A DNA stretch of 64,000 nt from Escherichia coli. Lineage in GTDB: Bacteria > Pseudomonadota > Gammaproteobacteria > Enterobacterales > Enterobacteriaceae. This document shows, piece by piece, positions 11,486-24,551 of the stretch; within the stretch, counting starts at the first letter, position 1; each line of letters opens with the position of its first letter. The notes below the pieces were generated by a model. The model was not told the DNA's origin. It saw nothing but the letters and a program-made list of their open reading frames with translations, and ran no database searches. A program made the translations under genes and the position numbers. The stretch lies in assembly GCF_048403405.1 (NCBI RefSeq), contig NZ_CP183129.1; one strand, given 5' to 3'.

Positions 11486-12502
11486 ATGAACGCTAAGATA
11501 ATTGCCTCGCTGGCCTTCACCAGCATGTTCAGCCTCAGCACCCTGTTAAGCCCGGCGCACGCCGAAGAGCAGGAAAAGGCGCTGAATTTCGGCATTATTT
11601 CAACGGAATCACAGCAAAACCTGAAACCGCAATGGACGCCGTTCTTACGGGATATGGAGAAGAAGCTGGGCGTAAAGGTCAACGCCTTCTTTGCCCCGGA
11701 CTACGCGGGCATTATCCAGGGGATGCGCTTCAATAAAGTGGATATCGCCTGGTACGGCAACCTGTCGGCGATGGAAGCGGTGGATCGCGCCAACGGTCAG
11801 GTCTTCGCCCAGACGGTCGCGGCGGATGGATCGCCAGGTTACTGGAGCGTGTTGATCGTCAACAAAGACAGCCCGATCAACAACCTGAACGATCTGCTGG
11901 CGAAGCGGAAAGATCTCACCTTCGGTAATGGCGATCCTAACTCCACCTCTGGCTTCCTCGTCCCCGGTTACTACGTCTTCGCCAAAAACAATATCTCCGC
12001 CAGCGACTTCAAGCGCACCGTCAATGCCGGGCATGAAACCAACGCGCTGGCCGTCGCCAACAAGCAGGTGGATGTGGCGACCAACAACACCGAGAACCTC
12101 GACAAGCTGAAAACCTCCGCACCGGAGAAGCTCAAAGAGCTGAAAGTGATCTGGAAATCGCCGCTGATTCCAGGCGATCCGATCGTCTGGCGCAAAAATC
12201 TGTCCGAAACCACCAAAGACAAGATCTACGACTTCTTTATGAATTACGGCAAAACGCCGGAAGAGAAAGCGGTGCTGGAACGCCTGGGCTGGGCCCCGTT
12301 CCGCGCCTCCAGCGACCTGCAACTGGTACCGATTCGCCAGCTCGCGCTGTTTAAAGAGATGCAGGGCGTGAAAAGCAATAAAGGGCTGAATGAGCAGGAC
12401 AAGCTGGCGAAAACCACCGCGATTCAGGCGCAGCTGGATGACCTGGACCGCCTGAACAACGCGTTAAGCGCGATGAGTTCGGTAAGTAAAGCGGTGCAGT
12501 AA
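11486..12502 (+). CDS. phnD: phosphonate ABC transporter periplasmic binding protein
   Basis: 338 aa with N-terminal signal peptide (…LLSPAHA). Confidence 0.9.
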   Translation: MNAKIIASLAFTSMFSLSTLLSPAHAEEQEKALNFGIISTESQQNLKPQWTPFLRDMEKKLGVKVNAFFAPDYAGIIQGMRFNKVDIAWYGNLSAMEAVDRANGQVFAQTVAADGSPGYWSVLIVNKDSPINNLNDLLAKRKDLTFGNGDPNSTSGFLVPGYYVFAKNNISASDFKRTVNAGHETNALAVANKQVDVATNNTENLDKLKTSAPEKLKELKVIWKSPLIPGDPIVWRKNLSETTKDKIYDFFMNYGKTPEEKAVLERLGWAPFRASSDLQLVPIRQLALFKEMQGVKSNKGLNEQDKLAKTTAIQAQLDDLDRLNNALSAMSSVSKAVQ

Positions 12503-12627: not shown

Positions 12628-13407
12628 ATGCAAACCATCACCATCGCCCCACCCAAGCGCAGCTGGTTCTCGCTTCTGAGCTGGGCCATTGTACTCGCCG
12701 TGCTGGTCGTCTCGTGGCAGGGCGCGGAAATGGCCCCGCTCACGCTGATCAAAGACGGCGGCAACATGGCAACCTTCGCCGCCGACTTCTTCCCGCCCGA
12801 TTTCAGCCAGTGGCAGGATTACCTCACCGAAATGGCCGTCACGCTGCAAATCGCCGTCTGGGGCACCGCGCTGGCGGTGGTTCTCTCCATCCCCTTTGGC
12901 CTGATGAGCGCCGAAAACCTGGTGCCGTGGTGGGTTTACCAACCCGTTCGCCGCCTGATGGACGCCTGCCGCGCCATTAACGAGATGGTCTTCGCCATGC
13001 TGTTCGTGGTCGCCGTCGGTCTCGGTCCGTTCGCTGGCGTACTGGCGCTGTTTATCCACACCACCGGCGTGCTCTCCAAACTGCTTTCCGAAGCGGTAGA
13101 AGCAATTGAACCCGGCCCGGTGGAAGGTATTCGCGCCACCGGTGCCAACAAGCTGGAAGAGATTCTCTACGGCGTGCTGCCACAGGTGATGCCGCTGCTG
13201 ATCTCCTACTCCCTCTATCGCTTCGAATCCAACGTCCGCTCGGCGACCGTCGTCGGCATGGTCGGCGCGGGCGGGATCGGCGTCACCCTGTGGGAAGCGA
13301 TTCGCGGTTTCCAGTTCCAGCAAACCTGCGCCCTGATGGTGCTGATTATCGTCACGGTCAGCCTGCTGGATTTCCTCTCTCAACGGTTGCGTAAGCACTT
13401 TATCTGA
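12628..13407 (+). CDS. phnE: phosphonate ABC transporter permease, apparently intact
   Basis: Uninterrupted 259-codon ORF with GGAG Shine-Dalgarno 8 nt upstream; polytopic membrane protein. Confidence 0.85.
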
Positions 13408-20747: not shown

Positions 20748-21506
20748 ATGAGCCTGACCCTCACACTTACTGGCACTGGCGGCGCACAGGGCGTTCCCGC
20801 ATGGGGCTGTGAGTGCGCGGCCTGCGCCAGAGCGCGGCGCTCATCGCAGTATCGCCGCCAGCCATGCAGCGGCGTCGTGAAGTTTAACGACGCGATCACC
20901 CTGATCGACGCCGGGCTGCACGATCTCGCCGATCGCTGGTCGCCCGGATCGTTCCAGCAGTTTTTGCTGACGCACTACCATATGGATCACGTGCAGGGGC
21001 TGTTTCCGCTGCGCTGGGGCGTGGGCGATTCGATCCCGATCTACGGCCCGCCGGATGAACAGGGCTGCGACGATCTGTTTAAACATCCGGGCCTGCTTGA
21101 TTTCAGCCACACGATGGAACCGTTTGTGGTGTTTGATTTACAGGGGTTACAGGTCACGCCCCTGCCGCTCAACCACTCAAAACTGACCTTCGGTTATCTG
21201 CTGGAAACGGCACACAGCCTGGTGGCGTGGCTGTCTGACACCGCTGGCTTGCCGGAAAAAACGCTGAAATTTTTACGCAATAATCAGCCGCAGGTAATGG
21301 TGATTGATTGCAGCCATCCGCCGCGTGCGGATGCGCCGCGTAATCACTGTGATTTAAACACCGTGCTGGCGCTGAATGAGGTTATCCGCTCGCCACGGGT
21401 GATTCTGACGCATATCAGCCACCAGTTTGATGCGTGGCTGATGGAAAACGCACTGCCGTCGGGGTTTGAGGCGGGGTTTGATGGGATGGAGATTGGGGTG
21501 GCGTGA
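20748..21506 (+). CDS. phnP: metallo-beta-lactamase-fold phosphodiesterase
   Basis: ORF 20709-21506 trimmed to ATG 20748 ([12 protein letters not shown]...), 252 aa; HxHxDH motif (THYHMDH). Confidence 0.9.
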
Positions 21507-21560
21507 TGGGATGGAGATTGGGGTGGCGTGATGGGATGGAGATTGGGGTGGCGTGATGGG
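21480..21560. repeat. tandem direct repeat, 25-bp unit gatgggatggagattggggtggcgt x3 plus a partial copy
   Basis: Units at 21480-21504, 21505-21529, 21530-21554 are identical; the first unit encodes the last phnP codons and the stop TGA 21504-21506. Confidence 0.9.
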
Positions 21561-21597
21561 GAGAATGTGCTCGCTGGCCCCCTCACCCGAGCCTACC

Positions 21598-21927
21598 TCA
21601 TCGCCCATACTCATCTTCCATTCTCCGCTCTTCATCCTCCAGTTGCCGACGCTCCTGATCAAGCTGGCGCTGGCGATCGTCCAGCTGCCTGCGGCGATCT
21701 TCAAACTGGCGGCGGCGGTCGTCATATTGTCTGCGCCGATCGTCGCTCACTTCACGCTGCCAGCCGTCGTCGTGCGAATCTTCATAGTCTCGCCCACGGT
21801 CAGGGTTATAAGCATCGTTAATCGCCTGCTGAATATTGCCAATGGTGTCGTCGATAATATCGGCCTGGGCCGGAACGGTGGACAGCGTGAGCAGGGTGAA
21901 TAAAAGAAATAGCGGAAAGCGTTTCAT
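21598..21927 (-). CDS. yjdP: secreted low-complexity protein with charged DDRRRQ-type repeats
   Basis: 109 aa; N-terminal signal peptide followed by RRRQ/DDRRRQ repeats; convergent with phnP. Confidence 0.8.
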   Translation of the reverse strand: MKRFPLFLLFTLLTLSTVPAQADIIDDTIGNIQQAINDAYNPDRGRDYEDSHDDGWQREVSDDRRRQYDDRRRQFEDRRRQLDDRQRQLDQERRQLEDEERRMEDEYGR

Positions 21928-21995
21928 TAGCCAACCTCAAAAAGAAACTCTATCCACATTAGTCATTACTCATCCATGCAAGTAGTGGATGAATC

Positions 21996-22313
21996 TCAAT
22001 TTCTCCGCTGCTCTATTGCCGTAATCGCCTCCACGTGTTGTTGATGACGACCGCCTTCGTACTGCGCGCCCAGCCACGCATCCACAATCATTTTTGCCAG
22101 TTCGAGGCCAACCACTCGTGAACCAAAAGCCAGTGCAACTTCACTGGCATAATGCGGATAATCAGTGCGCTCTGACGACCTGGTGTCTTTATCAATCACC
22201 TCACTCATTGACCATGAATAAAAGGCTGGCACAGCAACGCAGAATCCTGCGGTGCCAGCGACATGACCGCCCATTGCTCCGGTACGTTTTTTAATAAAAA
22301 ACACCGGTTGCAT
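21996..22313 (-). pseudogene. rpiB: degraded ribose-5-phosphate isomerase B remnant
   Basis: Translation ends ...FGSRVVGLELAKMIVDAWLGAQYEGGRHQQHVEAITAIEQRRN, matching the RpiB C-terminus as I recall it, and contains SERTDYPHYAS; about 52 internal residues including the ICGTG active-site Cys region are missing and the N-terminal GCDHVG motif reads GGHVAG. Confidence 0.6.
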
Positions 22314-22565
22314 TGATTAATTGTGCTCAGTATTTGCCGAAGTACAATATATATAATAAATATATAAAACACCTCATATTATTTACAGAGATAATAAATT
22401 CGCGTAATTTTCCCTCTTCAGCACAAATGCCTAATAAAATGGCGCGTTCAGCTCACACTTCTACTTATTAAAGTCGCAATTTCCCAATTATGATAACGCC
22501 AGCTTTAAATGACGTATTTTGCATGGATTACATATTTACGACACAAATGATAAATGGAGATTTAT

Positions 22566-24551
22566 ATGAATAACTCTCGGTTATTCCGTTTGAGCAGGAT
22601 TGTTATTGCGTTAACTGCCGCCAGCGGCATGATGGTAAATACCGCTTACGCAACAGATGAAGCGAAAGCCGCCACTCAATATACCCAACAGATTAATCAG
22701 AATTACGCCAAATCATTACCGTTTAGCGATCGTCAGGATTTTGACGATGCCCAGCGTGGATTTATCGCCCCGCTGCTGGATGAAGGTATTCTGCGTGATG
22801 CTAACGGTAAAGTTTACTACCGCGCAGACGATTACAAATTTGATATTAATGCCGCTGCGCCGGAAACCGTAAACCCCAGCCTGTGGCGTCAGTCGCAAAT
22901 CAACGGTATTTCTGGCCTGTTCAAAGTCACCGATAAAATGTATCAGGTGCGCGGCCAGGATATCTCTAACATTACGTTCGTTGAGGGCGAGAAAGGCATT
23001 ATTGTTATCGACCCACTGGTGACGCCGCCTACCGCAAAAGCCGCACTTGATCTTTACTTCCAGCATCGTCCGCAAAAACCGATTGTTGCTGTGATTTACA
23101 CCCACAGCCACGCCGACCATTATGGCGGTGTGAAAGGCATTATCTCTGAAGCCGATGTTAAATCCGGCAAAGTTCAGGTGATTGCTCCAGCTGGCTTTAT
23201 GGACGAAGCCATCAGCGAAAACGTGCTGGCGGGTAACATCATGAGCCGCCGTGCGCTCTACTCTTACGGTCTGTTACTGCCGCACAACGCGCAAGGCAAC
23301 GTGGGCAACGGCCTTGGCGTGACGCTGGCAACGGGCGACCCGAGCATTATTGCACCGACTAAAACTATCGTCAGAACTGGCGAGAAGATGATTATCGACG
23401 GCCTGGAGTTTGACTTCCTGATGACCCCAGGTAGCGAAGCGCCAGCCGAAATGCACTTCTATATTCCGGCCCTGAAAGCCCTGTGTACCGCCGAGAACGC
23501 CACGCATACCCTGCACAACTTCTACACTCTGCGCGGCGCGAAAACCCGCGATACCAGCAAGTGGACCGAGTACCTGAACGAAACGCTGGATATGTGGGGT
23601 AACGACGCGGAAGTACTGTTTATGCCGCACACCTGGCCGGTCTGGGGCAATAAGCATATCAATGATTATATTGGTAAATATCGCGATACTATCAAGTACA
23701 TTCACGACCAGACCCTGCACCTGGCGAACCAGGGCTACACCATGAATGAAATCGGCGACATGATTAAGCTGCCGCCTGCGCTTGCCAATAATTGGGCCAG
23801 CCGCGGCTATTACGGTTCTGTCAGCCACAACGCCCGCGCGGTATATAACTTCTATCTTGGCTATTACGACGGTAACCCGGCTAACCTGCATCCCTATGGT
23901 CAGGTGGAGATGGGTAAACGTTACGTGCAGGCGCTGGGCGGTTCTGCCCGTGTCATCAACCTGGCGCAAGAAGCGAACAAGCAAGGTGATTACCGTTGGT
24001 CGGCAGAACTGCTGAAACAGGTGATTGCCGCCAACCCAGGTGACCAGGTCGCGAAGAATCTGCAAGCGAATAACTTTGAACAGCTGGGCTATCAGGCCGA
24101 GTCCGCCACCTGGCGCGGTTTCTACCTGACCGGCGCGAAAGAGCTGCGCGAAGGGGTACATAAGTTCAGCCACAGCTCCACCGGTTCCCCGGACACCCTT
24201 CGCGGGATGTCGGTCGAAATGCTATTCGACTTTATGGCCGTTCGCCTCGATAGCGCGAAAGCCGCAGGTAAGAATATCAGCCTGAACTTCAATATGAGCA
24301 ACGGCGATAACCTCAACCTGACGCTGAACGATAGCGTGCTTAACTACCGTAAAACGCTGCAACCTGAAGCCAACGCCTCTTTCTACATCAGCCGTGAAGA
24401 TCTTCACGCCGTGCTGACCGGACAAGCCAAAATGGCGGATCTGGTAAAAGCGAAGAAAGCCAAAATTATTGGCAATGGTGCGAAACTGGAAGAAATTATT
24501 GCCTGTCTGGATAATTTCGATTTGTGGGTGAATATCGTAACCCCAAATTAA
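22566..24551 (+). CDS. yjcS: alkyl/aryl-sulfatase-like metallo-beta-lactamase-fold protein, secreted
   Basis: ORF trimmed to ATG 22566 (GGAG 8 nt upstream), 661 aa; signal peptide; HxHxDH motif YTHSHADH. Confidence 0.85.

Follow-up and report, generated by a model that had tools for sequence, protein, structure and literature searches.

The interval between yjdP and yjcS in the stretch of Escherichia coli DNA analysed here (64,000 nucleotides, referred to as the window) is understood, with high confidence, as the scar left by two deletions in a yjdP-rpiB-alsRBACEK-yjcS locus, a shared and old allele in which rpiB persists as a pseudogene. The interval measures 638 bp in the window versus 7,270 bp in a K-12-type genome, where the order of genes is yjdP-rpiB-alsR-alsB-alsA-alsC-alsE-alsK-yjcS. 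The first-pass annotation of this DNA, made from the letters alone, had given ~630 bp for the gap and had placed rpiB plus the als genes (~7 kb) there in K-12, correctly in both respects. According to the passages of PMC2808357 that cite Kim et al. 1997, Sorensen & Hove-Jensen 1996 and Poulsen et al. 1999, rpiB-alsRBACEK of K-12 is a D-allose locus. It occupies the same yjdP-yjcS site, and the pieces found in the scar are homologous to its rpiB codons 29-53 and 107-149 and to the end of alsK with the terminator that follows; compared to the K-12 locus, the scar is short of 159 bp and ~6.56 kb, holds no als gene, and retains rpiB without promoter, N-terminus and catalytic core. The parts of the interval and its neighbours are collected in Table 1.

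Table 1. Features of the yjdP-yjcS interval and its flanking genes (window coordinates).
Feature	Position	Strand	Content or basis
yjdP (DDRRRQL repeat protein), intact left neighbour	21598-21927	-	NCBIfam NF041443 (DDRRRQL_YjdP), 148 bits, cutoff 90
yjdP-rpiB spacer, 68 bp	21928-21995		within the 98.7% blastn block; equal in length to K-12
rpiB 3' piece	21996-22127	-	stop codon and codons for RpiB residues 107-149
Junction 1	22124-22133		retained copy CAAAAGCCAG of an imperfect 10-bp direct repeat flanking the 159-bp in-frame deletion
rpiB internal piece	22128-22203	-	codons for RpiB residues 29-53
Junction 2	22204-22211		8 nt of filler CTCATTGA at the ~6.56-kb deletion
Last 6 nt of alsK and als operon terminator hairpin	22212-22263	+	79% to L001 19323-19374
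Private 78 bp of the remnant allele	22264-22341		AT-rich hairpin CCGGT...GTTTTTTAATAAAAAAC...ACCGG; supplies the ORF ATG at 22313
yjcS upstream region	22342-22565	+	homologous to the K-12 alsK-yjcS intergenic region
yjcS (alkyl sulfatase), intact right neighbour	22566-24551	+	RefSeq annotation of identical genome; ORF listing

The genes on either side are close to their K-12 counterparts. The phn operon ends with phnP (up to 21506), yjdP is 99.1% identical to K-12, and yjcS, for which a longer ORF begins at 22554, is 97.3% identical. Window 21598-22600 is 100% identical to E. coli TUM14771 (NZ_CP128875.1), the annotation of which also names yjdP. Two repeats were observed in this flank. Window 21479-21560 holds a perfect 25-bp tandem repeat, TGATGGGATGGAGATTGGGGTGGCG, in 3.3 copies across the phnP stop, each copy re-creating the last phnP codons and TGA; one exact copy is present in K-12 and five other alleles, three are present only in the window's lineage, and none is present in 042, DFS.1, the APEC strain and E600003. 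Within yjdP, an imperfect 21-bp tandem repeat (21672-21744; 3.5 copies, 75% matches) encodes the DDRRRQL repeats, and the length of the gene varies by strain, with 330 nt here versus 357 nt in DFS.1.

Against the K-12-type locus taken as reference for coordinates (L001), blastn resolves the interval and its edges into four collinear blocks. The first (window 21592-22133, L001 11995-12536, 98.7%) comprises yjdP, the 68-bp spacer and 138 nt at the rpiB 3' end, with yjdP ending at 12330 and rpiB running from 12399 in the reference. The second (22124-22203, L001 12686-12765, 87.5%) corresponds to rpiB codons 29-53, the third (22212-22263, L001 19323-19374, 79%) to the last 6 nt of alsK and downstream sequence, and the fourth (22342-22700, L001 19376-19735, 93.9%) to the yjcS upstream region together with the yjcS start. 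In a 100-bp profile of that upstream region, the first ~100 bp are 86% identical to K-12 and the remainder is near-identical. The similarity of the scar to rpiB and alsK lies far beyond chance, with blastn giving E = 0 for the rpiB 3' piece, 2e-23 for its internal piece of 80 bp and 1e-6 for the 52 bp from the alsK end. The mapping of endpoints against K-12, which the first-pass annotation had proposed as a check, thus located two deletions, one of 159 bp and one of ~6.56 kb.

The smaller deletion lies between imperfect 10-bp direct repeats, of which K-12 has the copies CAAAAGCCAG at L001 12527-12536 and CAACAGCCAG at 12686-12695, and the window sequence aligns to both. It removed RpiB residues 54-106 in frame, including Cys66, Thr68, His99 and Asn100, and may have come about by slippage or by microhomology-mediated deletion between the two copies. 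The larger deletion corresponds to L001 12766-19322 (6,557 bp). It took rpiB codons 1-28, the divergent rpiB/alsR control region, alsR, alsB, alsA, alsC, alsE and all of alsK except the last 6 nt, so that the als operon is indeed missing here, as had been claimed. No microhomology is recognisable at junction 2, and because 8 nt of filler were left there, an illegitimate join is the probable route. From an ancestor with the standard Escherichia arrangement yjdP-rpiB-alsRBACEK-yjcS, the two events together would have produced the present 638 bp. Nor were the lost genes found elsewhere in the material covered: a tblastn search for als genes, likewise foreseen at first pass, returned solely weak ABC-ATPase paralog matches (24-30% identity) from the 64-kb window, and the identical chromosome of TUM14771 carries no further rpiB, both rpiB-containing probes matching it in one place only.

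What remains of alsK leads into the als operon terminator, whose stem arms (22225-22236 and 22248-22259) form an inverted repeat of 12 nt with 92% complementarity. The fold is retained (about -22 kcal/mol in the window versus -21 in K-12), and the stem differs from K-12 by a compensatory T-A to C-G change. The 78 bp that follow are private to the remnant allele. They fold into an AT-rich hairpin (CCGGTACGTTTTTTAATAAAAAACACCGG; MFE -16.8 kcal/mol) and match none of the loci compared (K-12, B2, DFS.1, the lyxose island, E. whittamii and other outgroups).

The minus-strand ORF at 21996-22313 (105 codons, 318 nt) is a composite product of this scar. By blastp and tblastn, its residues 38-62 correspond to RpiB 29-53 and its residues 63-105 to RpiB 107-149; between the two stretches, 53 RpiB residues (54-106) are skipped. 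The first 37 codons show no alignment to RpiB and run, in antisense, over the end of alsK, the als terminator and the private 78 bp; the two rpiB fragments would by chance have come to lie in frame with these antisense codons, giving the 105-codon ORF. The 3' piece differs from K-12 by one synonymous and one nonsynonymous change, and the R137H substitution occurs in the window's lineage only, being absent from six other remnant alleles. The internal piece has nine nucleotide differences, six of them at third codon positions, and three amino-acid changes. The earlier reading of this ORF had held that the RpiB C-terminus is kept and that about 52 internal residues including the catalytic Cys are lost, both of which are borne out, the alignment giving 53. 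It had further taken the N-terminal motif to be altered, which has to be corrected: RpiB residues 1-28 are gone altogether, and 37 codons of unrelated DNA stand in their place.

The losses fall on the parts of RpiB that carry catalysis. The N-terminal strand with Asp9-His10 is absent from the ORF, as it lies within the deleted residues 1-28; the role of these two residues we take to be that indicated by the E. coli RpiB structure (PDB 1nn4, 2vvr). Cys66, the Thr68/Gly loop and His99 are missing as well, having been lost with residues 54-106. In E. coli RpiB, Cys66 serves as the catalytic base (PMC4783025, PMC11585597), and His99 acts in ring opening, an H99N exchange lowering kcat (PMC4783025). 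The family profiles agree: the ORF reaches 78.3 bits against TIGR01120 for rpiB (cutoff 138.65), 60.7 against TIGR00689 (cutoff 88.3) and 51.6 against NF004051 (cutoff 135), remaining below every curated family cutoff, and only profile positions ~103-143 match well. Descent from rpiB is nevertheless clear from phmmer, which aligns the ORF to PDB 1nn4 in two stretches (E = 9e-34). A full-length functional RpiB, the finding that by the earlier account would have spoken against a remnant, does not emerge from the alignment, which consists of two pieces only, with the Cys66/His99 region absent.

Signals for expression are equally scarce. The native rpiB promoter region was deleted, as gene coordinates place it within the sequence lost at junction 2; a consensus scan of 21900-22620 found no sigma-70-like promoter, and no clear Shine-Dalgarno sequence is readable upstream of the ORF ATG. 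The two terminator-like matches in 21900-22620 (0.6 expected) are unremarkable, and an Rfam scan of 21400-22800 with E up to 1 returned nothing. These signs suggest that the ORF is not expressed. Because it is without the promoter region, Asp9-His10, the Cys66/Thr68 loop and His99, the ORF, as judged from its sequence, cannot be a sugar-phosphate isomerase and is to be considered a pseudogene.

Whether the ORF could instead be a functional shortened protein of the RpiB/LacAB family, or a new small protein, has to be weighed against this background. The frame is open over its 318 nt in 8/8 remnant genomes inspected, it departs little from RpiB over the C-terminal 43 residues, and RefSeq/PGAP calls it an intact CDS, "RpiB/LacA/LacB family sugar-phosphate isomerase" (WP_001183284.1, besides five or more variants), rather than a pseudogene, as seen in the equivalents of window 21996-22313 at L002, L008-L013 and L094. 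The open frame, however, is weak counter-evidence to pseudogene status, because a frame of 105 codons is expected to survive by chance at 2-4% divergence. Against a function stand the scores below all curated cutoffs, the missing RpiB residues 1-28 and 54-106, the 37 leading codons antisense to the terminator hairpin, and the lack of promoter, sigma-70-like site and clear Shine-Dalgarno sequence. The alleles themselves vary mostly at nonsynonymous positions: among seven remnant alleles, a small sample, eight of the 12 variable sites are nonsynonymous and four synonymous, and the variants include Y-to-S and A-to-V in the conserved TDYPHYAS stretch. In this small set of seven, variation among the remnant copies looks neutral. 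A functional product of the ORF is thus considered very improbable.

With respect to the direction of change, one representative genome per species was scanned, and the intact order rpiB then alsRBACEK was found in E. whittamii, a divergent Escherichia (SCPM-O-B-8794), Citrobacter amalonaticus, C. koseri, Enterobacter and Cedecea. It lies between yjdP and yjcS in both Escherichia and adjoins phnP in the four others. The scar was found in none of the species representatives (one genome per species). Since the outgroups keep rpiB-als at the site, the als operon is ancestral there and the scar derived. The opposite polarity would have the short junction as the ancestral form and rpiB-als as an island gained in K-12-type strains, a proposal to which the site lends some appeal as a hotspot that carries another sugar island in 411 genomes. 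It is barely credible, however, given that two rpiB fragments and the alsK end with its terminator can only be leftovers, and that rpiB-alsRBACEK occupies the same position in six outgroup species. The claim of a loss at the locus therefore holds. As to the "reductive evolution" that had been read from it, the deletion is derived, but the process is neither ongoing nor lineage-specific: what is seen is one old allele, the junctions of which recur in many complete genomes.

How widely they recur was determined with a 236-bp probe spanning both junctions, counted as present if at least 80% covered, among 5,426 complete E. coli genomes. The scar with both junctions is present in 1,569 of them (~29%), at a median of one and at most two places per genome. 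Records at 95% identity or more number 1,574, that is, the 1,569 plus at most a handful; four records fall at 90-95%, and the 3,402 records whose best match lies outside the remnant are all in the 80-90% band. The scar was also seen in O111:H8 and in the mastitis strain ECC-1470. A single origin of the allele is what the shared junctions suggest. With such a frequency, an assembly artefact or a collapsed region can practically be discounted as the source of the junction, the same sequence being present in 1,569 independently finished genomes. Use of the locus as a marker of a "non-K-12" strain, as had been put forward, is true but weak, since the same allele occurs in so large a part of the species.

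A recent, lineage-specific reductive event in the clone of this strain would be the other way of explaining the loss. The exact allele is rare, with 4.8 kb around the scar identical in only six genomes (TUM14771, GN02461, 4621, MS 69-1, TUM1226 and OX030728), and R137H is private to it; relatives of MS 69-1 are, we presume, of group D. Yet the junctions are identical in all the carriers counted above, EAEC 042 (group D) and O111:H8 among them, and in the core, carriers differ by up to ~4% from one another and by 11-23% from intact alleles, which leaves a recent loss highly unlikely. The deletion is better understood as an old allele held in common.

The als operon and the scar are two of three states in which the site is found. 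Using an alsB-alsA probe, 3,400 of the 5,426 genomes are als-bearing, and using an island probe, 411, mostly O157:H7 and O145, carry a lyxose-type island. The three counts sum to 5,380, so that the states practically exclude one another at a single hotspot; the ~46 genomes showing none of them, like the four records at 90-95% identity, could represent intermediate or further alleles. The lyxose-type island (L005-L007, e.g., L007 561-9711) occupies the same site as window 21928-22345, homology with the window on the right side starting at 22346. It is a different cassette of ~9.2 kb that, unlike the scar, holds no rpiB pieces, and its genes encode a hybrid sensor kinase, a sugar ABC transporter, a D-lyxose/D-mannose isomerase, a ketose-bisphosphate aldolase, a kinase and a response regulator. 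Because this allele also has 68 bp of spacing after yjdP, a shared rpiB 3' end was considered; the idea was dropped, there being no blastn similarity past window 21914. The literature on the O157 lyxose isomerase locus (Z5688) yielded nothing on the yjdP-yjcS site. Among alleles that retain als, the pathway was seen decaying independently in the APEC strain O2:K1:H7 of group B2 (L004 11156-14708), with a frameshift in alsB and an internal stop in alsC, and an IS5 was seen inserted in alsA of an als-bearing pig isolate (NZ_CP062908.1).

The divergence of the scar core sets it apart from the sequence around it. Identity to intact alleles is 77-89% in the core, compared with 97-99% to K-12 in the flanks and ~95% in the phn genes. 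For the rpiB internal piece, identity is 87.5% with K-12 and 88-89% with the B2 and DFS.1 alleles; the species representatives (one genome each) come closest with the divergent Escherichia (91%) and E. whittamii (88.6%), and a search for its source met no intact E. coli allele above 90%. Against intact alleles the terminator piece reaches 77-79% identity, and the remnant alleles differ mutually by up to ~4% in the core. Because of the diverged internal and terminator pieces and the spread among remnants, the allele is judged to be old. The step in identity from 98.7% to 87.5% falls exactly at junction 1, for which simple decay offers no direct explanation; homogenisation of the flank by recombination or a divergent donor is required. 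Probably, the allele passed among E. coli lineages and recombination with als-bearing chromosomes repeatedly refreshed its flanks up to the junctions, while the ~300-bp private core, not refreshable in this way, drifted. As an observation on the right flank, the 5' half of yjcS (window 22554-23530) is 87-89% identical to ECC-1470 and O111:H8 (L010, L011), the scars of which are 98% identical; the yjcS alleles are deeply diverged, and the region is a recombination mosaic.

The placement of six of the nine substitutions in the internal piece at third codon positions (P ~0.04, binomial, equal rates) hints that part of its divergence may predate inactivation, a lead only, given the small numbers. 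Because the core is as far from all E. coli rpiB/als (77-89%) as it is from E. whittamii, and given this third-position excess, one might suppose an introgressed or very ancient allele that stems from a working gene in a lineage outside the sampled intact alleles, kept in a long-lived three-way polymorphism with als and the lyxose-type island by niche-dependent selection on rare-sugar use. We advance this reading tentatively, considering it possible and on balance rather unlikely.

Strains without als have been described before, and the scar is an ordinary instance of the known als presence/absence polymorphism. EAEC 042 (group D) is als-negative and does not use allose in Biolog data (PMC2808357). 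Its locus has the same order of yjcS, a 318-nt remnant ORF, yjdP and phnP, and over its full length the core shares 96.2% identity with that of the window (~4% different), R137H of the window allele being absent. The published description of rpiB and als in this strain as a "complete absence" (PMC2808357) appears slightly inaccurate for rpiB, of which a two-piece fragment persists. E. coli W (ATCC 9637, phylogroup B1) is likewise reported to miss alsBACEK and not to grow on allose (PMC3032704), and resembles the window strain in its loss of als, as far as the published report goes. Mildly new compared to these descriptions are the scar's anatomy at base level, a frequency of ~29% among complete genomes, the three states of the site, a core divergence at the level seen between species, and the status of the remnant in RefSeq.

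Lastly, the scar has consequences for how E. coli genomes are read. Annotation of the remnant as an isomerase probably affects about 1,500 complete genomes, and metabolic reconstructions could wrongly include a second ribose-5-phosphate isomerase on its account. Beyond such housekeeping, the scar is of little importance. It does predict an allose-negative phenotype: because EAEC 042, which has the same scar, was shown experimentally to be unable to use the sugar, the window strain is expected not to grow on D-allose. For the species, the yjdP-yjcS interval presents itself as a three-state hotspot of sugar utilisation, occupied by the als operon, by the lyxose-type island or by the scar.
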